From assembly GCA_017394405.1 (NCBI GenBank), contig JAFPYW010000060.1:1-47957 (forward strand): DNA of 47,957 nt. Direction: 5' to 3'. The translations under genes and the position numbers were made by a program. The notes under the pieces were generated by a model. It searched no databases and had not been told where the DNA came from. It worked only from the letters and a program-made list of their open reading frames with translations. This DNA is from Alphaproteobacteria bacterium. GTDB taxonomy: Bacteria > Pseudomonadota > Alphaproteobacteria > CAAHEQ01 > UBA3637. This document shows positions 2,434 through 14,238 of the stretch, one piece after another; the first letter of the stretch is position 1, and the number at the start of each line of letters is the position of its first letter.

Positions 2434-5400
2434 TTACACACCGCTACAAATATGTGCGTTGTAATCCCATGATCCGCCAGCATCGGTACAGCAAGCCCCT
2501 TTCAACATATCACTGGCTAAAGGATCATCCAAGATGGTTGGATCACAACATTGTGGGTTGTAATCTGGAGAGGCACTATTGGCCGCAAGCGAACAACATT
2601 GAGCTGTAAATTCTTGCGCCCCCACGTCTTGACCTTGCTTGCAGCAGACGCCATTTATCCAAGTGCCACCGGCCTTGGTACAAGCGCTAGGGGAACTACC
2701 GCCATTTGGACAACATGTGTTGCTCCATACATCGTCATAATCTTTGCAGGTACGATATGTTTCATCGCCTTCTGTTTCAATTTCACAACAAACGTTACCC
2801 ACCTGTTGATATTTCTTTTCACCATTTGTCGGGCAGCCGCAATGTTCAACGTCCAACTTACAATACGGATATCCCACATCCAACGGCGTACAAGTGCTGT
2901 CATACGCTAAATTATTATAGCAACAAGTACCATTTTTGTTTTCACCCTGGTTGCCAGCAAATTGTGGACAATCGCAAGCCGTAATATTAACTTCGCTGTA
3001 GGTTCCAGCATTTCGGTCATAAGCATAGCCCCACTTACAACATGTTCCGTTTTTCAATTCACCCTGGTCCCCATTATCATACGGACAACCGCAGGTCGTA
3101 TAGTCATTTTGTTGGCTTCCGCCATTACTGATCCGGTCGCTATATTGGTTACAGCAAATGTTGCTATCTGAACCAGGGCCACCCCTTGGGCTATATCCGT
3201 CTGGGCATCCACAATATTTGGTATCAATGGCGCTGTAGTTGGAACCATCCCAGGCATATCCATTATTGCCACAACAGATTTTGCCGTCTTTGTTCCACGT
3301 ACCCCAACCCGATTGATTGCTTGGGCAACCACAGGCCGCATAGTTATCTTTAGTTATAGATGGATTGTCCTCGGTCACCTCTTTGCCTATCTCGCTGGAC
3401 GAACAACAGACATTTTCATATCCTTCCACTTCGCTTCGACGGGATCCTTCTGGACAACCACAAGCATTATCCCGCTCGGTCTGTGCATTCATAGCATCCG
3501 TTCCGCTTACAATTTTATACCCAGATCTGCTGCTGCAGCAAACAGAGTAGTCGGACGACATAGAACCGCCCAATCCCGTACAACAGTCGGGTTCTATGAA
3601 GGTGGTACTGCCTTGGCCATGTAAACCATTACAACATTCTTTTGCACCGCCACTTAGGGAATAGGCGGGCCCATTAGACGGACAACATTGGCTATAATCT
3701 GCAGTAGAGACACTATGCTCGCTGTCATCACAACAGAATTTATAATCACTAGAACCAGTATAAGTATTACTCATGGCACCCGATGGCGTTGAACAACAAC
3801 TCGTTGCCATATAATTCCACTCATCCCGCTCATAACCGTAACCAAAGTAAGATTTCCATGCGGAGCAACATTCGGTGCTGGTTAAACCCAACGCCATACA
3901 ACAGGCGCCCGAGACCCCTTCTTTACCATATTCCTTACCATCAGACATACAACAAATGGCTGAACCCGAATCGCTTATCATCTCACCCGGACAGCAGTTT
4001 TCATCCCATTCACCTGTTGCCTGATTAATCATACCATCACAGCATGTGCCATTCCTGAATTCTGGATCACCTTCCCATCCATGGCCACAGCAATATTTCT
4101 TTGAATAATCCCAATTGCCGTTGCCGTCATGACAACATTCGGTATGGGTTCCTTCTTCATCATAAACTTCATTTGCAAATCCTTTCTTACAGCACCAACG
4201 ATGTGTACCTGGTTCGCGACCCAAATCATCATCATCAGGACCACATCCGCAAGCATCCAAGTTTGAAACCTCAATTCCATCTTTCGTTATTTCAGTTCCT
4301 AGTCCAGTACAGCACACATATTCAACATCACTATTTTCGTCGTATTGGAATTCCACAGGGGCATTGCCACTCGGACAGCCGCAATGTTCAGGCATCCATT
4401 CGTCTGGATAAGACGCATATCCTATATGGTTGGAATCACAGCATGTACCATGTCTTGTTCCATTTGGATCCATCCAGAAATATCCACCTTCGGCCATGCA
4501 ACAATCATCATATCCCAGGAGGGAGGCTTGTGCAGCCGATGTTGAACAACAATATGCGCTTTCATGATACCATGTTTTTCCATGATATCTCTCATCATCA
4601 CAGCACACATAGCTGCCATTTGATAAGTCAGTATATCCATACTCACCACCACAGCAATAGATTGATTCAGCATTATATGCCCCACCCTCATAATCTGAAT
4701 TCCATTCAAAGCCATTTTTACAACAATATTGTTTACCATATTTTTCGGTCGGTTCTACACCCTCCGGACAGCCACATTTATCAACATCGGCCATGCGGTA
4801 CGATCCATTTTCATCAGGCAATTTTCCATTGCTGCAACAAATTGGATTGCCATTATCATCGTATGACGGATCGATCTCCACATCACCATCTTTAGGACAT
4901 ATACTCTCGCACGTGTCGCCAACCGCATGTGTACTACCGGTACAACAATGCGTCAGACCATAATAATCCACCTCTGTCACTGTTCCGTTCTCACAGCAAC
5001 CGGAATTTGTACAGTTGCCAGCTGAATCTCGGGCATCGCAATAGTATGGCGCATCATTTGAACATTTATTTTCACATTCACCGCCTGGTGTCCGTTCTTG
5101 ACTTTCCGAACACTTTTCTTTACATTCCTTATGGTCATCTACTTCAACAACTTCCATGTTTTCGTCATTACAACATGTCTTTGTGTTGCCATTTGTGACC
5201 AATTTATCGGAGTCGCAACAATCAGCCATTCCGCTGGATGTGTAGTAAAGTTCTGTTTCGCCTTTACAACAAACGTTCATACCGCCAGGTGCCAAAGACC
5301 ACTTACCCGATGGACAACATTCACCATCCACGTTCTTTTCGCCTTCACCGCAGCAATTACCATCGGCATCAGCATCAAGTCCCTCTTTGCAACAAACGCG

Positions 5401-8400
5401 TCCGTTAGAATCACCAGCGGCATTATAACGTTCGGTCGGAACTTCGCCGGACCGACAACACATTTGGCCATCATTTTCGTCGCCAACGGCATACAGTTCA
5501 TTGCCTTGATCATCTTGGCCACAACATTCGTATTTGCTCTTTTCAGCGTTCCATATCCGTTTTACCGTCAAACAGCAATAATTGTCGGCCGATCTGACCG
5601 GTGTTTCATTTTCAGCACAGCAAACGGAATCGCGCCAGAATCCGATCTTGCCGGGCGCACAACATGTCGTTTCATCCGGCATTGGAATTTCACCTTCTTT
5701 ACAACACACTGTTCTCTTGTTTGTTGTACCCGGCCAACTTTGCCATAGTGATGAAGAATCAATAATCACAGCAACTTTGCCATCTTCACCGCAACAATGA
5801 CCTGTTTTATCGGCGCCGGCGGCCTTGTCCTCACAACACACCTGATGTGAATAGTTGCCATAGTTATTTTGCGTATCACCGAAATATGTGACAAGATGTT
5901 CCATTGAACAACACACGTCATTGTCATCCAACAATTCTGAGCAACATTCGCCGTCTTTATCTAACTTATCACTTCCTGTACAGCAGGAACCATGCTTATC
6001 CACATTCCACACATCTTGGTCACAACAGGCGGATCCAAGAGCAGAGGCATCGGCACCCTCCGGCAAGATCTTTTTGCCCAAGTTCGCACAACAATCAGCA
6101 TCTCCTAACCTTGCGCCCTCATATATTGCCTTATCGCCATCACAACATTTCACACCGGAACTTGTGGTAATTTCTGTGGTTCCATTTGGACATTTACAGT
6201 TGCCCGTTGTATAATCACGATCCACACCATAGCATTTATCCAAGCAGACATACGATGGATAATTATTATACCACGTATCTTTATCCGGTCCGCACCAACA
6301 ACTGCATCCGTTTGGCTCAAAGACTTCACCTTTGGCGATACATTCTTGTTCTTTTTCTTCCTTGTTGTTGCAAACACACTCATCACCCTCTAAATGCTTG
6401 CCTGAAACACATTCGCACGAACACTTGCTATAAACCCATTCTTTATCGGTGCCACATCCTTCAATCGGCTGTTGCATGTCTGTCGGACATTTACACGTTC
6501 TGGTTGTACTGTTCCACACCCGAGGTGCAGTACATCTGTCTTCACACTTACAATCGGTAGTATTCCATTTCTGTTCTTCTCGACAATTGGCTTCTTCTGC
6601 GCTCATCAAACAAACACAATGGCAGGCATCCACACTCCATTCTTTACCTTCACCACAGCTCTCGGCTGGCTCTGTACGTTTGCACTTGCAAGAACAGCTA
6701 TCTGCATCCCATTCTCTGAGTGTGCTTTCACAATTAGATCCGCTTTGTGTGCATACACATTGTTTGGTGCCATTTTCCGTCACAACGTGCTTCTTTGAAT
6801 CATCGCAACAATGTTTGTCCTCACCTTCGCCGACAACCAAATCCATATTACAGCAATGATCGTCTACCCATTCTTCATCGTCGGCACATTCTATGCAATC
6901 GCCGTTTTCGTCGCGACCAGTATCGCATTTTTCTTTACATTCTTTAACGCCATTGACGACCACAACTTCTTTGCCTTCGTCATCACAACATTTGTCTTTA
7001 CCATCTGAACTGTACTTGTTCGCGATGTTGCAGCAACGGCCTTCAACAACTTCTTCATCGTCAGCGCATTCTTCACATTCGCCGGTTTCAGAATTACGAC
7101 CAGAACCAGTATCACATTTATCTTTACATTGCTTTGTACCGTCAATCTCTACAATCTCTTTATTTTCATCTGTGCAACAAACCTTAGTTTCACCCTCATA
7201 AGCGACCTGACTGGAATCACAGCATTGTTTGTTTTCGCCTTCGCCAACAATTTCTTTGCCTTCGTCATCACAACATTTGTCTTTACCATCTGAACTATAC
7301 TTGTTCGCGATGTTGCAGCAACGGCCTTCAATCACTTCTTCATCGTCAGCACATTCTTCACAGCCGTTGCTCGTATATTTCATACCGCTTGCACAACAAC
7401 CATAGTGAGCTTGGTCCTCATCATCATAATATGAACTTGTTTCTTCCCCTTCTTTACAACATGTGCCATTAGCTGCTGCATCAATTCCCTTAGGACAACA
7501 CACCGTTGAAAACGTACCATCACCCGCGTATATACCATGTTCACCTTCTGCACAACACTCCAAATTCTCATCGTCCCATCCATAAAATGCATTGTGAGCA
7601 TAACCATTTGCACAACATAAATCTGGCCTGTGCTTATTGGTTGCCAAATCTACTCGTTGATCATCACAACATGTCGTTTCCCCATCTGGATTCGTAATCA
7701 TTGTACCGCCTGCCGCTGTACAACAATCAGCATCCAATTCTCCTTCGGCATTCTTTGCCCCGTTACAACATTTACCGGCTTCGGAATTATAGGTTGTTCC
7801 ATCCGGACAATCGTCCTCGCTTGGCACACATTCGCCTTGGTCGTTTTCGGTATATCCATCATAGCATTCTTTATATTTATGACAGGTTTTGGCCCAAGCG
7901 CTTTTCACAAACAAATTCCAATTCCAAGCGGTTGATTCATCATCACAAATTTCACAATACTTACAATGTTCTTCTTCGCTTTCGGAATAAGTACCATTTC
8001 TGGCTTCGCAACATTCACGTGTAATGGCGTATTTTTCACCCAACGGCGGACAGCACATTTGATCATCCGGATTACCAACGGGTTCGTTATTATCTGCACA
8101 ACATGTGGTGACACCATCTTTCGTGGCACTTTTGCCTTCCGGACAATCTGGGTTCGGTTCGCATTCGCCAGTGGCGCTATTGCGTATTTGATTTTCTGGA
8201 CATGGGCAATGTTCATCATCCACCTTGGTATAATCTTCAGCATCATCGTCCCATGCTTTATGGTTCTTACAGCAATATCCACCTTTTCTTGTACCTCCCT
8301 TCGGACAGGTACAAGCTTGCTGTTCGCTGTCCCACACCAATGGCTCCTTACATGGCGCACACAAATACCCGCTGCCGTAGGTGCGTTCTTGCCCTTCTGG

Positions 8401-8670
8401 ACATTTATCCGCACAGGCAAAATCCAAATCTGCATAACCACGTTTTGCACAACATTCATAAACAGTCGGCGTAATGCCAAATGACTCAGCGCGCTTTGGT
8501 TTATCTGCCGGACAGCACTCACCATTTGCCGCTTGTACACCCTTTGGACAACAAACCTCTTTGAGCGAAGGATAATCTCTCACAGCAGCTGGTTTATCTG
8601 CCGGACAGCACTCACCATTTGCCGCTTGCACACCCTTTGGACAACAAACCTCGTGGCCCGAAGATTTCAC
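2434..8670 (-). CDS. giant cysteine-rich repeat protein, C-terminal part (continues 8699-10768 across a 1-nt frameshift)
   Basis: 2078-aa ORF dominated by CC, CxC, CxCxC and CGCP motifs; no signal peptide or obvious RBS of its own; frame stays open upstream to the extra base at 8713-8715. Confidence 0.85.
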   Translation of the reverse strand: MKSSGHEVCCPKGVQAANGECCPADKPAAVRDYPSLKEVCCPKGVQAANGECCPADKPKRAESFGITPTVYECCAKRGYADLDFACADKCPEGQERTYGSGYLCAPCKEPLVWDSEQQACTCPKGGTRKGGYCCKNHKAWDDDAEDYTKVDDEHCPCPENQIRNSATGECEPNPDCPEGKSATKDGVTTCCADNNEPVGNPDDQMCCPPLGEKYAITRECCEARNGTYSESEEEHCKYCEICDDESTAWNWNLFVKSAWAKTCHKYKECYDGYTENDQGECVPSEDDCPDGTTYNSEAGKCCNGAKNAEGELDADCCTAAGGTMITNPDGETTCCDDQRVDLATNKHRPDLCCANGYAHNAFYGWDDENLECCAEGEHGIYAGDGTFSTVCCPKGIDAAANGTCCKEGEETSSYYDDEDQAHYGCCASGMKYTSNGCEECADDEEVIEGRCCNIANKYSSDGKDKCCDDEGKEIVGEGENKQCCDSSQVAYEGETKVCCTDENKEIVEIDGTKQCKDKCDTGSGRNSETGECEECADDEEVVEGRCCNIANKYSSDGKDKCCDDEGKEVVVVNGVKECKEKCDTGRDENGDCIECADDEEWVDDHCCNMDLVVGEGEDKHCCDDSKKHVVTENGTKQCVCTQSGSNCESTLREWDADSCSCKCKRTEPAESCGEGKEWSVDACHCVCLMSAEEANCREEQKWNTTDCKCEDRCTAPRVWNSTTRTCKCPTDMQQPIEGCGTDKEWVYSKCSCECVSGKHLEGDECVCNNKEEKEQECIAKGEVFEPNGCSCWCGPDKDTWYNNYPSYVCLDKCYGVDRDYTTGNCKCPNGTTEITTSSGVKCCDGDKAIYEGARLGDADCCANLGKKILPEGADASALGSACCDQDVWNVDKHGSCCTGSDKLDKDGECCSELLDDNDVCCSMEHLVTYFGDTQNNYGNYSHQVCCEDKAAGADKTGHCCGEDGKVAVIIDSSSLWQSWPGTTNKRTVCCKEGEIPMPDETTCCAPGKIGFWRDSVCCAENETPVRSADNYCCLTVKRIWNAEKSKYECCGQDDQGNELYAVGDENDGQMCCRSGEVPTERYNAAGDSNGRVCCKEGLDADADGNCCGEGEKNVDGECCPSGKWSLAPGGMNVCCKGETELYYTSSGMADCCDSDKLVTNGNTKTCCNDENMEVVEVDDHKECKEKCSESQERTPGGECENKCSNDAPYYCDARDSAGNCTNSGCCENGTVTEVDYYGLTHCCTGSTHAVGDTCESICPKDGDVEIDPSYDDNGNPICCSNGKLPDENGSYRMADVDKCGCPEGVEPTEKYGKQYCCKNGFEWNSDYEGGAYNAESIYCCGGEYGYTDLSNGSYVCCDDERYHGKTWYHESAYCCSTSAAQASLLGYDDCCMAEGGYFWMDPNGTRHGTCCDSNHIGYASYPDEWMPEHCGCPSGNAPVEFQYDENSDVEYVCCTGLGTEITKDGIEVSNLDACGCGPDDDDLGREPGTHRWCCKKGFANEVYDEEGTHTECCHDGNGNWDYSKKYCCGHGWEGDPEFRNGTCCDGMINQATGEWDENCCPGEMISDSGSAICCMSDGKEYGKEGVSGACCMALGLTSTECCSAWKSYFGYGYERDEWNYMATSCCSTPSGAMSNTYTGSSDYKFCCDDSEHSVSTADYSQCCPSNGPAYSLSGGAKECCNGLHGQGSTTFIEPDCCTGLGGSMSSDYSVCCSSRSGYKIVSGTDAMNAQTERDNACGCPEGSRRSEVEGYENVCCSSSEIGKEVTEDNPSITKDNYAACGCPSNQSGWGTWNKDGKICCGNNGYAWDGSNYSAIDTKYCGCPDGYSPRGGPGSDSNICCNQYSDRISNGGSQQNDYTTCGCPYDNGDQGELKNGTCCKWGYAYDRNAGTYSEVNITACDCPQFAGNQGENKNGTCCYNNLAYDSTCTPLDVGYPYCKLDVEHCGCPTNGEKKYQQVGNVCCEIETEGDETYRTCKDYDDVWSNTCCPNGGSSPSACTKAGGTWINGVCCKQGQDVGAQEFTAQCCSLAANSASPDYNPQCCDPTILDDPLASDMLKGACCTDAGGSWDYNAHICSGV
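6967..7362. repeat. 111-bp intragenic direct repeat (6967-7077 and 7252-7362)
   Basis: Near-identical copies encoding CEECADDEEV(I/V)EGRCCNIANKYSSDGKDKCCDDEGKE; offset 285 nt, in frame. Confidence 0.9.
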
Positions 8671-8733
8671 AACAACTGGTTTATCTGCCGGACAGCACTC
8701 ACCATTTACCGCTTTCTACACCCCATGGACAAC
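8497..8733. repeat. tandem intragenic repeats (8497-8559, 8590-8652, degenerate copy 8677-8733)
   Basis: TGGTTTATCTGCCGGACAGCACTCACCATTT... encoding EVCCPKGVQAANGECCPADKP; a partial further copy lies near 9482-9516. Confidence 0.9.
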
Positions 8734-10768
8734 ATTCACCATTAGCATCCAACCCCTCACAACAATTATCATGCTTGTCTATTTTCATACCTTCACAACA
8801 TGTCCATGTACCATCACTTTTTTGGCGGCCATATGGTTTTTCGGCAGTACAACAGGTCCAGACACCATTCACTTTTATTGCAGATGCGGTCCCTTCCTCA
8901 CAACACATCATCTCCATTCCGGTGACGCCGGCTTTAAATACCGCAAGCTTATTTATAACAGCACAGCATTCATAGGTCGGATTCCACCAATAACTACCTT
9001 GATACCAATCCTTACCATCTTTACAACAGTGTCGATAATTCATCCCATCAACGTAATAGAGTCCATCTTCCGGACAGAAACAACCTTGCTTTTCACTGTT
9101 CCACACAAGTGGCGCCACACAGGTATCATTTTTGACACATTCACCCGCATCATTTTCTTCATACCCATCCTCGCAAACGCAATCACCGGCATCGTTCTTG
9201 AGGAAATGTCTTGACTCATCACACTCGCACTCATCACCAACATTGCGTTCTTTCTCATCGCACACCTTAACACATTCACCATTTTTAAAAACTTCTCCCC
9301 ATGCACAACATCCCCATTTACGTAGTTCACCATCATAAGAACCGTGAGGTTTTTCGGGGGTGCAACATTCATAAGCATCAGCATCTGTCACATAGTCTTC
9401 CACGCCCGGCGGACAACAATTACCATTTTCGTCCACACCTAGTGTTCCTGTTGGACAACAAACCTCATCGTCCGAATAATTTTTCACAACAACTGGTTTA
9501 TCTGCCGGACAGCACTGACCATCTATCACATTTACCCCAGCCGGACAACAATTACCATCTTTATCCAAACTCACCACTCCCGGTGGACAACAGGCAGACT
9601 TTCTACCATACTTCACAGACATTGGTTTATCCGTTGGACAACATGCACCATTCGCCGCCGCTACACCATCCGGACAACACGCATACCAGCCATTTCCATC
9701 AGGCACCATATAAAGCTCTGTGCCCCAACATTCACAGGATCCAGCAAAAGTCGACACGCGCGCATGTTCAGGACATTCACATTCCCCATCCTTGACACGA
9801 GCATTACCCGGACAACAAATCTGGCCACCATTTCCATCATCCATCAAATTCTTATTCGGGTGAGAACATTCACATTTACCACCATATACTTGTGCATTTT
9901 TTGCAATACATTCACAATCCCCATCCTTGACACGAGCATTACCCGGACAACAAATTTCACCCACGGTTTCATCATGCATCAATTCAGGCACGTACTGTGG
10001 ACAGTAACATTCGCCGTTATCAATTTTGGCATTCTTTGGACAACACTTTTGCGCCTTTTTATTCCATTGTCTTTTCAATTTAGCGCACTCTTTCGCCGTT
10101 TTAACTTCGTTCCATTCGTCGCTGTCCGTTCCATCCCGATTTCCACCGGCCAAAGCGTTTTTAATTCCAAATACCTCTTTTAATTTATTCAAGAAAGCAT
10201 GATCCGAGCCCTGCTTCATGGGGGTGCTTTCAATTTCTTCCAGACTGTTCGCATACCATTCAATCGTTTTCAAATCACCTTTGGTATCCCGATAATAATC
10301 CGTTACTTTATAGGTATCGTCTTCCCCATCATACACCAAGCGCCAAGATCCCGCGCCGCGCCCCGAAACCGTGTCGCCCATTTGGTCCACATAATCCCAT
10401 GTAAAAACGATTTTATAATCGTCTTCCAACCAATAAGACGCCCGTCCTGTTCCAACCAAAGTCGTTCCGTCCACGCAAGCATTGTCACGAATAACATGAT
10501 TTTCCAAATCGCAACATTTTTGATTTTCACCTTCGGTATAAACTAAATAGTTTGGACAACACTTTCCGACAACGGCCGTTTCATCATCACCACAATCACG
10601 GAACTCCGGCGGCACAATCGGATTATTTGGATCCACGTGCAAACCAAGGGAACTGACACCCTTCTCTTTGCGATAATAGGAGGATGATTTACCACTATGC
10701 CCGCCACCAAATGCAAAAGCGGCTGTTGATATACATAACGCTGTCACCAGCAAGATCAGTTTCTTCAT
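8699..10768 (-). CDS. giant cysteine-rich repeat protein, N-terminal part with Sec signal peptide
   Basis: MKKLILLVTALCISTAAFA signal peptide after AAGGA RBS; Cys-rich repeats shared with the downstream ORF; premature TGA caused by the frameshift. Confidence 0.85.
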   Translation of the reverse strand: MKKLILLVTALCISTAAFAFGGGHSGKSSSYYRKEKGVSSLGLHVDPNNPIVPPEFRDCGDDETAVVGKCCPNYLVYTEGENQKCCDLENHVIRDNACVDGTTLVGTGRASYWLEDDYKIVFTWDYVDQMGDTVSGRGAGSWRLVYDGEDDTYKVTDYYRDTKGDLKTIEWYANSLEEIESTPMKQGSDHAFLNKLKEVFGIKNALAGGNRDGTDSDEWNEVKTAKECAKLKRQWNKKAQKCCPKNAKIDNGECYCPQYVPELMHDETVGEICCPGNARVKDGDCECIAKNAQVYGGKCECSHPNKNLMDDGNGGQICCPGNARVKDGECECPEHARVSTFAGSCECWGTELYMVPDGNGWYACCPDGVAAANGACCPTDKPMSVKYGRKSACCPPGVVSLDKDGNCCPAGVNVIDGQCCPADKPVVVKNYSDDEVCCPTGTLGVDENGNCCPPGVEDYVTDADAYECCTPEKPHGSYDGELRKWGCCAWGEVFKNGECVKVCDEKERNVGDECECDESRHFLKNDAGDCVCEDGYEENDAGECVKNDTCVAPLVWNSEKQGCFCPEDGLYYVDGMNYRHCCKDGKDWYQGSYWWNPTYECCAVINKLAVFKAGVTGMEMMCCEEGTASAIKVNGVWTCCTAEKPYGRQKSDGTWTCCEGMKIDKHDNCCEGLDANGECCPWGVESGKW
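9773..9955. repeat. 48-bp intragenic direct repeat (9773-9820 and 9908-9955)
   Basis: Both copies encode ICCPGNARVKDG(D/E)CEC; offset 135 nt. Confidence 0.85.
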
Positions 10769-10807
10769 GGACATCCTTATAAGGTTAGTTTTTACGTACG
10801 TACTTTC

Positions 10808-10836
10808 AGATTATAAAAACAAAAATCAAATGTCAA
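10808..10836 (-). promoter_or_regulatory. sigma70 promoter of the Cys-rich gene
   Basis: TTGACA-N17-TAATCT (TATAAT at N15) about 40 nt upstream of the start codon. Confidence 0.65.
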
Positions 10837-10846
10837 GCATTTTATC

Positions 10847-10889
10847 AAAAAAAACGATGCCTCCCTATTTATATAATATAGAGAGGCAT
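10847..10889 (-). terminator. intrinsic terminator of aspS
   Basis: Minus strand AUGCCUCUCUAU...AUAGGGAGGCAU stem followed by CG and U8. Confidence 0.8.
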
Positions 10890-10905
10890 TTTTAGCACCA
10901 GATTT

Positions 10906-12672
10906 TTAGCGCAATTTGATATGCACTTCTCTGAGCTGCGTTTCCGTCACCGGTGATGGCGCATGCATCAAAAGGTCTTGTGCCTGTTGGTTGAACGGGA
11001 ATGCAATCACTTCACGGATGAATTCTTCGTTTTCCAACATCATCACAATCCGGTCAAAACCGAAAGCTGCACCACCATGTGGCGGGGCACCATATTTGAA
11101 TGCGTTCAACATACCGCCGAACTTGGCTTCCACCACTTCCGGACCATAGCCGGCAATTTCAAATGCCTTGTACATGACATCCGGACGATGGTTACGAATA
11201 GCACCCGACAACATTTCCAAACCATTACCCACCATATCAAATTGATAGGCCTTGATTTCCAACGGATTCTTTGTTTGCAACGCTTCCAATTCGCCCTGAG
11301 GCATTGAGAACGGGTTATGACTGAACATCGGCTTACCTGTTTCTGGATCTTGTTCATAGAACGGGAAATCCACGACCCAACAGAAGCGATAAGCATTCTT
11401 TTCATATAGGTCTAATTCTTGCCCTAACAGGTTGCGCACTTTACCCGCAAACAAAGCGGCCTTATCGCCTTTACCACAGATGAAGAACACGCTGTCGCCC
11501 TGCTCTAATCCTGTCAGTTCAAACAATTTAGCCAAACGAGCTTCATCCAATTTTTTCGCAATCGGCCCTTTGTTGCCTTCGGCCGCACGAACAATATAGC
11601 CTAAACCGCCCATTTCATTTTCAACGGCAAAAGCATTCAATTTATCAAACCAACTGCGCGGACGATCTTCGGTCTTGGGCGCACGAATGGCCCGCACAAA
11701 ACCACCCTCGGCCACCGTGTTAGCAAAGATACCAAAATCGGATCCAGCAAACACTTCCGATACATCAACGATGCGCAATGGATTACGCAAATCCGGTTTA
11801 TCCGTTCCAAAAGTTTTCATGGCTTCATCAAATGGAATACGTTGGAATGGCGCTTCGCTGACCGTTGCATTTGGAGCAAACTCTTTGAAAATAGCGGTAA
11901 TCAATTTTTCGCCAACTTCCAAAATTTCATCTTGAGTCACAAATGACATTTCCCAGTCAATTTGATAAAACTCACCGGGAGAACGATCAGCACGGGAATC
12001 TTCATCACGGAAACACGGCGCCAATTGGAAATAGCGATCAAAGCCCGCAACCATCAACAATTGCTTAAATTGTTGCGGAGATTGTGGCAACGCATAAAAT
12101 TCGCCTTTATGCACACGGCTTGGCACCAAATAGTCACGAGCCCCCTCCGGGCTGGACGATGTTAAAATCGGTGTTTGGAATTCCGTGAATCCCATTTCCC
12201 ACATTTTATCACGCACAAACTTATTCAAGCGGTTACGCATTAAAATGTTGGCATGCGGTTTCGTCCGACGCAAGTCCAAGAAACGATACGTCAAGCGTTG
12301 TTCTTCGCTTAAATCCGCAGAATCAGCCGTGATTAAGAAAGGTAATACTTGGGCCTCACCCAACACATCCACCTTTTCCACGCCGACTTCAATTTCACCG
12401 GTCGGCATTTTCGGATTCACCGTTTCCGGCGTTCTGGTTAAAACTTTACCTTCAATACGGACAACAGATTCCGGCCGTGCTTTTTCCAAAGTGGCAAAGC
12501 ATGGGCTGGACGTATCCACCACACATTGTGTCACACCATCATTGTCGCGCAAATCAACGAATAAAAGGTTTCCATGGTCGCGTTTGGTTTGAATCCAACC
12601 AGACAACACAACCGCTTCACCAGAATTGCTTGCACGCAACTGGCCACACAATTTTGTTCTATAATTTTGCAT
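10906..12672 (-). CDS. aspS: aspartate--tRNA ligase, probably non-discriminating (Asp/Asn)
   Basis: [23 protein letters not shown] (His typical of ND-AspRS), [36 protein letters not shown]. Confidence 0.97.
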
Positions 12673-12698
12673 TTTTTATCCTTTTCTTTTTGTTAAGT

Positions 12699-12846
12699 GC
12701 AAGGGCGGATTTCGTCCGCTGTGCCACCTTGCTTCAGGATCACATGAATCCCCTTAAACACGCTGTAACGGGCGCGCCCGAAGGGTTCTACTGAGTCAAA
12801 AGGCTGTTCTTCCCTTATGCTCCCCTGTGTCATCAGGATCAAAGCA
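12699..12846 (-). promoter_or_regulatory. T-box riboswitch, ultrashort Stem I (class II/translational type), Asp (GAC) specifier, in the aspS leader
   Basis: K-turn Stem I UGC-UUU-GAU-CCUG-AUGACA-CAGG-GGA-GCA; Stem II AAGGG-AAGAAC...CAGUAGAA-CCCUU; IIA/B CGGGCGCGCCCGUUACAGCG; Stem III; GCAAGG-UGGCACA-GCGGA-CGAAA-UCCGC-CCUUGC. Confidence 0.9.
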
Positions 12847-12852
12847 AAATAC

Positions 12853-12881
12853 ATTATAGCAAACAGAAAAGAAAAAAGCAA
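12853..12881 (-). promoter_or_regulatory. sigma70 promoter for T-box/aspS
   Basis: TTGCTT-N17-TATAAT with extended -10 TG; predicted start about 12846, the first base of Stem I. Confidence 0.8.
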
Positions 12882-12888
12882 CAAAAAT

Positions 12889-13698
12889 CTAAATATCTGG
12901 AATCAGCGGTGCAGGCAAATCCCAATACACCCGATCCTCGCGAATGGGCATAAATGTTTCCAAGTACCGATCTACGCTGATACCCAACGGATTATCCAAC
13001 GTTTTATTTTGATTAAAACCGGTCCGAAGCCAAATTTTAGATAGCGTTCTTTTTTTCGCTTTTTTCATTTTACATTGCAGACATTTTTTTGAATTATCAT
13101 TGCATTGACATTCGGATTGCAAATCGTCCGTGATAGGTAAATCAAATTTTTCAATAATCGCCATCCATAAATTTTCATTTGGATAAACCAATTGTAAATC
13201 GTAAATATGAACATCACGAATCAAACCGCGTCCTCGCGTTTCCCGTTGAATGTCTGGTACTTCACTAGCAAAACGAGAATACACATTTCCTCGCGACATC
13301 CGAGCAATCGGACCTCCTGCGCTGAAATTGCTTTCCATTGTATCACGTGCCCATACCGTGCTGTTACGCAATGTCAGATATTTTATCAGTTGTTCTTCCA
13401 CCAAAATTTGTAACGCCGGCACAGACGTCCGCGCGGGTTGCACCTGTTTTAATGTCAAACGTTCCGGATCAATATAATAAAATTGCCAACTGCGTTCATT
13501 TCCAACACTCACGTCTTGGTGGGTCAATTGGTAATTCAAAAACACCCCCAAAACAATCAACAATGATGCGGCCAAAACCAACCCGACCGTCAAGGTGCGA
13601 ATCATTTTGAAAAAACGACGTTCCGGCAATGCATTCACATGTAGCCGCAACGGATAAGCGCCTAAATCGTCTTTCAATTCTTCGGGTGTGTCTGCCAA
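12889..13698 (-). CDS. VirB8/TrbF-like type IV secretion inner-membrane protein
   Basis: TTG start after GGAG; single TM helix; YLTLR and MSRGNVYSRF helices; C-terminal NPLG motif. Confidence 0.65.
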   Translation of the reverse strand: MADTPEELKDDLGAYPLRLHVNALPERRFFKMIRTLTVGLVLAASLLIVLGVFLNYQLTHQDVSVGNERSWQFYYIDPERLTLKQVQPARTSVPALQILVEEQLIKYLTLRNSTVWARDTMESNFSAGGPIARMSRGNVYSRFASEVPDIQRETRGRGLIRDVHIYDLQLVYPNENLWMAIIEKFDLPITDDLQSECQCNDNSKKCLQCKMKKAKKRTLSKIWLRTGFNQNKTLDNPLGISVDRYLETFMPIREDRVYWDLPAPLIPDI

Positions 13699-13818
13699 GA
13701 GTATCTCCCTTCCTACAAAATAAAATACGCGATTTTTATTTACCTTGCAACAAAAAAATAAAAAACACTTGAGATTTATCAAAAAATGTGTCCTAATAAA
13801 GGACAGCGAGGAATCATC

Positions 13819-14238
13819 ATGAAATATGTTACCGCTTTTTTGTTAAGTTTAGGAATCACCGCATCCGTTTGCCATGCCCAAACAGATCGCGTGTATACAG
13901 AAGCCGAACAAATGGGAACATTGGCCGGTTTGGCCTATGCGTGCGGATCTAAACAAAAATTAAAAGATTTTGAATTGATCGCCGCGCATATATTAGCTGA
14001 CAAATCTGCCACCAGCGAAGAAGCAGAAAAAAAATTACAGCAATTTAACAAAATGAAATATCGTTACATGAAAAAACAAAAAGATTCCCCCAGAATGTCA
14101 TGTAAGGAAGTTTTAGAACATTTTAATAATATGCCTATTTTCCAATCAACCGTTTATGCTGACGGCACGGTTAAAATGTTTGACGGCACCATTTTGAAAC
14201 CACAATATCCCATCATAAAGGTTAAAGTGAGGCAGTAA
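13819..14238 (+). CDS. hypothetical exported protein
   Basis: GAGGA RBS; signal peptide MKYVTAFLLSLGITASVCHA; stop overlaps the recG start. Confidence 0.75.
   Translation: MKYVTAFLLSLGITASVCHAQTDRVYTEAEQMGTLAGLAYACGSKQKLKDFELIAAHILADKSATSEEAEKKLQQFNKMKYRYMKKQKDSPRMSCKEVLEHFNNMPIFQSTVYADGTVKMFDGTILKPQYPIIKVKVRQ

Follow-up and report, generated by a model that had tools for sequence, protein, structure and literature searches.

The aspS gene and the RNA leader in front of it lie on the minus strand of a 47,957-nucleotide (nt) stretch of alphaproteobacterial DNA, contig JAFPYW010000060.1 of assembly GCA_017394405.1, which is referred to here as the window and supplies all coordinates unless another locus is named. 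aspS (10906..12672, minus strand) encodes a bacterial-type aspartate--tRNA ligase (AspRS) of 588 amino acids, matches NF001750 with 783.7 bits against a cut-off of 443, and starts with an ATG at 12672, 26 nt behind the end of the leader. The leader (12698..12851, minus strand) comprises the complete set of sensor domains of a T-box riboswitch. The window's own assembly amounts to 1.04 Mb and is 81% complete, and aspS loci that are 84-96% identical to that of the window are found in uncultured Alphaproteobacteria represented by metagenome-assembled genomes (MAGs) from rumen and gut, on contigs of up to 368 kb. Judged by its sequence and by that of its homologues, the leader in front of aspS in this rumen/gut alphaproteobacterium with its small genome is a real and conserved T-box for tRNA-Asp, built on the ultrashort-Stem-I plan, as the original prediction, made from the letters of the window alone, had proposed together with the identity of the downstream gene.

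Family match, covariation and parts of the leader

At curated thresholds, Rfam reports two tRNAs and no T-box across the window. A permissive Rfam search of 12600-12950 matched the T-box family RF00230 end to end (model positions 1-219) to 12698-12851 on the minus strand, with 47.8 bits and an E-value of 1.2e-9. The score stays below the RF00230 gathering score of 93, because the distal part of Stem I, the elbow-binding arm, is absent: 2 nt stand in for 72 model positions of this part, and the leader has no long Stem I with a distal platform of interdigitated T-loops for the tRNA elbow. The other T-box features are present, namely a specifier followed by a purine, Stem II with an S-turn, the IIA/B region with an F-box, Stem III with the RAG motif, and the UGGN bulge helix. 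The Rfam threshold is also the reason why standard annotation misses the alphaproteobacterial T-box.

The window leader and its relatives (alignment A1, 18 sequences, MAFFT) served to build the covariance model R1, which scores the window leader at 176.4 bits. On these 18 sequences, RNAalifold recovers the base and tip of Stem I, the lower and upper parts of Stem II, IIA, Stem III and the helices A1 and A2 (helix A1 being distinct from the alignment of that name), with compensatory changes in 15 of 38 pairs. R1 found 55 leaders, 31 of them distinct, and pair statistics were compiled on these 31 after addition of the IIB pseudoknot; pairing figures for individual helices refer to this set. Standard pairs fill 97.2% of the 1299 cells, and both-side (compensatory) changes occur in 23 of the 42 pairs. 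The covariation score is 0.396 versus 0.171 in shuffles, the real alignment is not equalled on any of five measures by any of 500 shuffles, and pairing falls to 30-50% when partners are slid by 1-3 columns. These figures lean toward structure, since the sequences share ancestry and were aligned to R1; the MAFFT/RNAalifold analysis of the 18 sequences is independent and agrees with them. Family match, consensus fold and covariation thus converge on the predicted ultrashort-Stem-I T-box.

Whole-genome searches with RF00230 gave a single match in the window's own assembly and one each in 17 of 40 relatives. In the genome of the window, the leader is also the only strong match to R1 (next best 9.7 bits, E about 1), and no second T-box was found there with RF00230, with R1 or with the motif GGTGGNACNGCG, which has three matches, the other two of which are not R1 matches.

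All elements that the original prediction had listed are present in the sequence where it had placed them on the minus strand. Stem I (12819..12845) counts 27 nt in all and consists of a GC/UUU/GA...GGA/GC base, a stem of 5 base pairs (bp; 12838-12834 with 12827-12823) and the 6-nt loop AUGACA. Its base combines a C-stem of 2 bp (GC/GC) with a variable bulge of 3 nt and, by sequence pattern, a tandem G.A/A.G (G12840 and A12839 with G12822 and A12821). The K-turn-like core G and A are invariant in 18 of 18 sequences, which suggests K-turn geometry at this site. The two helices of Stem I (helices 1 and 2) covary; they are 92.4% and 97.4% paired, with both-side changes in six of eight pairs. Within the apical loop, the specifier GAC (12831-12829) is followed by a conserved 3' purine, A12828 (together 12828..12831), as seen in the alignment of the 31 distinct leaders.

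Stem II (12781..12816) contains an S-turn-type internal loop formed by AAGAAC (12811-12806) and CAGUAGAA (12793-12786). Its loop-E-like bases are invariant and are aligned to the Stem II AGUA of RF00230, while helices 3 and 4 are 100% and 93.5% paired, with both-side changes in seven of nine pairs. The adjoining IIA/B region (12759..12780) carries the Stem IIA hairpin (CGGG 12780-12777 with CCCG 12772-12769), which is invariant in 31 of 31 leaders, the F-box-like CGUUA (12770-12766) and the IIB pseudoknot between the loop 12776-12773 and 12762-12759. The four pairs of the pseudoknot are 89.4% paired; one shows a both-side change (C-G to A-U, in locus L109) and two show a change on one side.

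The RAG motif (AAG, 12753..12755), conserved in all 31 leaders (AAG in 29, GAG in two), stands directly 5' of Stem III (12736..12752), in which GGGAUU and GAUCCU enclose the loop CAUGU. Stem III (helix 7) is 98.4% paired, with both-side changes in five of six pairs, and a paired change from A-U to G-C at 12749/12739 is found on contigs from the sequencing runs X4 and X5. The antisequestrator-type element GCAAGG-UGGCACA-GCGGA-CGAAA-UCCGC-CCUUGC (12699..12732) is composed of helix A1 (GCAAGG 12732-12727 with CCUUGC 12704-12699), the 7-nt bulge UGGCACA (12726-12720, with UGGC at 12726-12723) and helix A2 (12719-12715 with 12709-12705). A1 and A2 (helices 8 and 9) are 100% and 99.4% paired, with both-side changes in four of 11 pairs; A1 occurs among homologues as GCAAGG/CCUUGC, GUCAGG/CCUGAC and GUAAGG/CCUUAC. 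A conserved CUUAA (12693..12697) follows A1 directly and is the candidate 3' strand of a closing helix termed helix L, and a Shine-Dalgarno (SD) sequence AAGGA (12679..12683), read from the sequence, lies 7 nt before the ATG.

A putative sigma-70-type promoter, likewise read from the sequence (12853..12881), consists of TTGCTT (12881-12876), a 17-nt spacer and TATAAT (12858-12853). TATAAT ends 7 nt before the element, and a similar TTGnnn-17-TATAAT arrangement is located at the same place in most of 18 homologues. A consensus promoter scan of 12500-13000 returned no sites, the -35 hexamer TTGCTT matching only 3/6 positions. With this promoter, transcription would begin at about 12846, where the T-box has its 5' edge. 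In three RNA-labelled libraries from three studies, assembled (Logan) contigs span 12673-12832 with 88-97% identity, one of them reaching into the aspS start; they are a weak hint of expression and not proof of transcription, since such contigs give no 5' end, strand or level, and stretches that they leave uncovered carry no information.

The same stretch contains an open reading frame (ORF) of 63 amino acids with a TTG start (12693-12884, minus strand), which is present in a mechanical ORF list and could be taken for a small gene in place of an RNA element. Its start, however, would lie upstream of the promoter-like hexamers, homologues carry 1-, 2- and 4-nt indels in the loops of Stem II and Stem III, and they change in pairs across helices. 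A coding function as the explanation of this conserved stretch is given virtually no credence.

Specificity and relation to known T-boxes

The specifier GAC-A is present in 30 of the 31 distinct homologues, as expected from the assignment to Asp in the original prediction; the remaining one, from another order, has AAC-A. The two loop bases 5' of GAC vary (AU, CC, CU, CA or a single C), while the UGGCAC of the bulge is invariant in 31 of 31 leaders. The sole tRNA-Asp(GUC) of the genome has a G73 discriminator and an encoded CCA, in agreement with the proposed fit of UGGC to tRNA-Asp. Among the 39 tRNAs found in the genome, G73 is restricted to those for Arg, Asp, Gln, Glu and Ser. Of the loop triplets AUG, UGA, GAC and ACA, only GAC has a reading tRNA with G73, as tRNA-Met and tRNA-Thr carry A73. 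Specifier codon, discriminator base and gene agree, and therefore tRNA-Asp emerges as the target; on this evidence the window leader would read, and presumably bind, tRNA-Asp.

A conserved hairpin loop in a leader that directly precedes an aminoacyl-tRNA synthetase gene is also what a tRNA-like operator for self-repression by AspRS, of the Escherichia coli thrS type, would look like, in which case the RNA would not sense tRNA. The loop, however, displays the codon GAC and not the anticodon GUC, and the whole RNA, with its Stem II, IIA/B, Stem III and UGGN bulge, aligns both to the T-box model and to the ileS T-boxes described below. An operator of this kind is accordingly held to be extremely improbable, and the RNA is treated as a tRNA-Asp T-box in what follows.

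T-boxes are regarded as a Gram-positive hallmark, and the leader would extend their range to Alphaproteobacteria. The range given in the published surveys consulted comprises Firmicutes, Actinobacteria, Chloroflexi, Deinococcus-Thermus and the delta-proteobacteria Geobacter and Pelobacter (PMC2494555, PMC3766115). Class II translational T-boxes with an ultrashort Stem I are described for ileS of Actinobacteria, such as M. smegmatis, M. tuberculosis and N. farcinica (PMC7583486, PMC11297988, bioRxiv 10.1101/2023.02.28.530422), and according to the 2023 preprint all ultrashort T-boxes regulate ileS (bioRxiv 10.1101/2023.02.28.530422). As far as these sources go, they agree with the claim of the original prediction that T-boxes are not recognised in Alphaproteobacteria and that the ultrashort class is described almost only for Ile in Actinobacteria. 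A literature search combining T-box riboswitch with Alphaproteobacteria returned titles and abstracts that contained neither term. The class II search of the T-box database TBDB was, according to its methods section, confined to Actinobacteria reference genomes and to class-I matches with a truncated Stem I. Both the host group and the Asp specificity are therefore new for ultrashort T-boxes relative to the searchable literature, TBDB listing aside.

For comparison, metagenome contigs were scanned with a pattern combining F-box and T-box core, which gave at least 120 matching stretches, 80 loci of which were listed. R1 matches 69 of the 80 listed loci, and among the matches listed 23 of the 69 have a Stem I of the form GA(U/C)-CCGG-xxAUCA-CCGG-xGAG, 14 of the 23 with UGGU in the aligned part. 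These 23 AUC-A leaders, again among the matches listed, score 45-60 bits with R1 and have a G+C content of 59-73%; ileS (TIGR00392) lies downstream in four of the four that were scanned. The likeness to actinobacterial-type ileS leaders that the original prediction had pointed out thus holds, with direct counterparts in metagenomes.

In a base-for-base alignment, the window leader and four metagenome ileS leaders have in common a K-turn-type base, the S-turn GGAAGAA...AGUAGAAC, CGGG...CCCGU(U/C)ACAGC, the RAG motif, AAG(C/U)(A/G)AGGUGG(C/U)AC(A/C)GCGG and a 7-nt UGGN bulge. The overall plan is also that of the ileS class, with a 4-5-bp Stem I that carries specifier and purine in its apical loop, no platform for the tRNA elbow, retention of Stem II, the IIA/B pseudoknot with F-box and Stem III, and absence of a terminator. 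Against this common background, the window has GAC at the position of AUC, UGGC in place of UGGU, and aspS in place of ileS, and its host is an AT-rich gut/rumen alphaproteobacterium with a genome of about 1 Mb, in contrast to the Actinobacteria of the ileS class. A2 and Stem III of the window are compact and lack insertions, unlike those of the ileS leaders, while the conserved CUUAA after A1 belongs to the window type and not to the ileS class. This would be a compact scaffold that has been naturally re-set to another tRNA, from AUC to GAC and from UGGU to UGGC, with AAC in one lineage, the same swap that is sought by engineers of T-box/tRNA modules.

T-boxes on aspS are known from Firmicutes, where class I transcriptional elements with Asp or Asn specifiers precede aspS and aspS-gatCAB, e.g., in Clostridium acetobutylicum (PMC4206432; for aspS also PMC2494555); the C. 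acetobutylicum aspS-gatCAB operon is described with an Asn-specifier T-box (PMC4206432). These leaders resemble that of the window in placing under tRNA-dependent control an AspRS with a second role in the Asn pathway, with either an Asp or an Asn specifier. They differ in having a long Stem I with elbow platform and an intrinsic terminator, both of which are absent from the window leader.

Four further metagenome matches stand apart from the AUC-A group; all have short or unusual Stem I regions and are not ileS leaders. The match L124:6821-6989(-) has UGGC and a G+C content of 40%, and precedes a gene for an archaeal-type aspartate--tRNA(Asn) ligase. L189:752-932(-) is found before valS, and L155:1690-1857(+) and L167:55-220(-) have UGGC bulges.

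Distribution, physiology and the leader of Candidatus Enterousia

The order to which the window belongs (one family with 16 genera and 80 genomes) contains a T-box match in 31 of its 80 genomes, always one per genome. By genus, matches occur in g1 (16/20), g22 (4/5), g25 (4/4), g5 (3/3) and g3 (3/10), and in none of the genomes of the other 11 genera, including g2 (0/21), where absences in incomplete MAGs do not prove loss. Sampling of 150 further families across the class, with one genome per family, yielded two matches, G185 with 55.9 bits and G156 with 26.1 bits, and at the level of the phylum none of 150 sampled Pseudomonadota genomes matched. Every T-box locus examined in these genomes adjoins aspS on its upstream side. 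The suggestion that other aminoacyl-tRNA synthetase genes of this lineage use the same device found no support, as each genome has a single match, located before aspS wherever the locus was examined.

An AspRS tree of 72 rows, from which the truncated rows L109 and L110 are left out, places the rows with a window-type T-box in two clades, with 11 rows without T-box as a grade between them. On this tree, at least two to three gains or losses of the T-box would be needed. Such a patchy distribution, with T-box-less aspS loci between two T-box-bearing clades, together with the weak sequestrator discussed in the next section, is what might be expected of a decaying relic of a horizontally acquired T-box without present function. 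Compensatory changes, however, keep nine helices intact in 31 distinct sequences from five genera and a second order, and the single-stranded motifs GAC-A, UGGCAC, RAG and F-box are fixed, making decay a most unlikely account of the leader.

Among five genomes checked, that of the window included, asnS exceeds its cut-off in none and gatB in all five. Since asnS is missing and gatB is present, the AspRS of the window is probably non-discriminating and would serve both Asp and Asn decoding. In these genomes of about 1 Mb without AsnRS, one AspRS would thus feed two sets of codons, and aspS would be the single T-box-controlled gene per genome. G185, the only genome of its order, has a leader of the window type (L109:1501-1665) with an AAC-A specifier before an AspRS-like ORF, and its tRNA-Asn(GUU) ends in G73-CCA. 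In this single genome, the leader probably senses tRNA-Asn, a variant that fits an AspRS that must charge both tRNAs.

A second type of aspS leader, about 100 nt long, is found in Candidatus Enterousia and relatives, whose aspS is 57-60% identical to that of the window. It is represented by L062:1300-1506 and 35 other distinct loci (a subset of L051-L094, and L110; alignment A6). Its Stem I combines a covarying 6-bp base with a K-turn-like GAU...GGA, a tip of 3 bp (A-U in 21, G-C in 15 sequences) and the loop ACUGAC(A/G)(A/C)C. Stem II, IIA/B and Stem III are absent, and the T-box core consists of AAG followed by GGGUGGCACCGCGC. An invariant GGGUGCC lies downstream, and the bulge UGGCACC is its complement in 35 of 36 sequences; alternative partners of GGGUGCC are the A2/A1 3' strand or a variable hairpin partner, and the SD is GGGACC. 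RF00230 scores these leaders at 26-31 bits in five of six loci tried. The idea of a split Stem IIA that harbours the Enterousia Stem I as an insertion was dropped after more sequences had been compared.

Some aspS leaders of the wider group lie next to tRNA genes. The aspS T-box of G016 (L009, about 1456-1500) stands directly 3' of a tRNA gene, and in several Enterousia loci (e.g., L062, 1230-1300) the short leader directly follows a tRNA gene with the anticodon GGU (Thr) by eye. The leader may be co-transcribed with the upstream tRNA in G016 and in these Enterousia loci.

Proposed mechanism and regulatory output

A functional ultrashort-Stem-I T-box that ties aspS expression to tRNA-Asp charging is the likely role of the leader, as judged from the sequence features set out above. 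The anticodon GUC of tRNA-Asp would base-pair with the GAC that the Stem I apical loop displays, and this codon-anticodon pairing would be backed by the Stem II S-turn and the IIA/B pseudoknot. In uncharged tRNA-Asp, the 3' G73-C-C-A would pair with the UGGC of the 7-nt bulge and, together with the RAG motif, stabilise helix A1. A1 would then hold CCUU, which could otherwise pair with the AAGG of the SD, and uncharged tRNA-Asp would raise AspRS synthesis, most likely at translation initiation. We infer both the direction of regulation and the output step from this arrangement. A scan of 12500-13000 gave no intrinsic-terminator-like sites, and no U-tract follows the element, as the original prediction had noted. 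Translational control through a weak CCUU/AAGG pairing is the most likely output and is put at about an even chance, the rest falling to another or additional output that may involve the conserved CUUAA.

Modelling of the 3' domain lends this output some support. As ViennaRNA misfolds Stems I and II in the whole-leader model, the 3' domain was modelled on its own, and there mean SD accessibility is 0.81 with the antisequestrator and 0.43 with the A1 5' strand unavailable, the drop exceeding 0.2 in 23 of 31 sequences.

Several observations weigh against control of aspS by the leader, or at least against this form of it. The SD complement in the A1 3' strand is limited to CCUU (12704-12701), which allows 3-4 bp closing a loop of some 17-20 nt, whereas the ileS comparator leaders fold with sequestrators of 9-10 bp over the start region. 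In the GUCAGG/CCUGAC variants, only CCU/AGG is left as a sequestrator. Whole-leader partition functions reveal no switch, with a mean SD accessibility of 0.48 free versus 0.53 with the antisequestrator enforced. In the 3'-domain model without tRNA, the antisequestrator fold beats the next-best structure by about 4.6 kcal/mol, and the leader is therefore, on paper, "on" by default. At eleven aspS loci of the window's order the T-box is missing and the upstream DNA shows only promoter and SD, so that T-box control is dispensable; the RF00230 score below the gathering threshold belongs on the same side. RNAalifold of the 3' domain with A1 blocked found no conserved SD-sequestering alternative. 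Of the translational control that the original prediction proposed, the possibility of CCUU/AAGG pairing thus stands, but the pairing is short and the antisequestrator is favoured without tRNA. The unusual weakness of the sequestrator poses the question by what means AT-rich RNA can support a T-box that acts on translation. Two pairings noticed by eye, between the Stem III 3' strand and the SD and between the linker and the A1/A2 3' strand, were dropped, as neither is conserved between sequence groups.

The weak CCUU/AAGG pairing and the modelled default "on" state leave room for a true tRNA-Asp sensor with another output, be it a switch between CUUAA and the RAG linker, mRNA stability or Rho-dependent termination; this is unlikely, but it merits consideration. 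CUUAAC is conserved directly after A1, while the A-rich spacer behind it is variable, and CUUAA can pair with UUAAG (12757-12753) in the RAG-containing linker, with 5-9 bp possible in 31 of 31 leaders. This helix L shows a both-side change in L105 (UUUGAG/UUCAAA) and wobble-compatible changes in L012, L098, L100 and L102, the last three of which have CUUGGAAC(G). Two sequence groups differ in it by one extra U and one extra A; RNAalifold picks helix L in the second group, and it is part of the minimum-free-energy fold of the 3' domain in each of the four sequences inspected. The RAG motif has been described as contacting the tRNA terminal A and the antisequestrator and as helping to hold the uncharged NCCA end, and it must stay free for contact with that end (PMC11297988). 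Helix L, if real, would use the RAG linker and hence compete with docking of the tRNA 3' end. On the other hand, it is no longer than chance allows in this U-rich/A-rich context, as at least 5 bp are reached with 60% of shuffled partners and in 19 of 31 next-window controls. The SD is not part of helix L, and neither a rut-like C-rich tract nor a terminator was seen at the leader. Helix L is thus a candidate only, and sequestration of the SD by CCUU is retained as the preferred output.

Taken together with the Enterousia leaders and the AAC variant, the data allow a broader reading, put forward tentatively and rated at somewhat less than an even chance, in which T-box control of aspS is old in a host-associated, genome-reduced clade of Alphaproteobacteria and has diversified in three ways, into the window form, the Enterousia form of about 100 nt and the AAC variant. 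Within this reading, the window form would combine an ultrashort Stem I and Stem II with an expression platform that lacks a real sequestrator and may switch as the tRNA 3' end and CUUAA vie for the RAG linker. If true, the three forms of aspS leader would be natural experiments on the minimum of RNA that is needed to read a tRNA, and with them the ultrashort class would gain its first members that are not specific for Ile.

The surroundings of the locus were inspected as well. The flanking ORFs at 12889-13782 (minus strand, 297 amino acids), 8699-10774 (minus strand, 691 amino acids) and 13786-14238 (plus strand, 150 amino acids) have no NCBIfam or Pfam match at the thresholds used. The GC skew of the plus strand is strongly negative (-0.26 to -0.29) across 4001-12000 in comparison with the remainder of the window.

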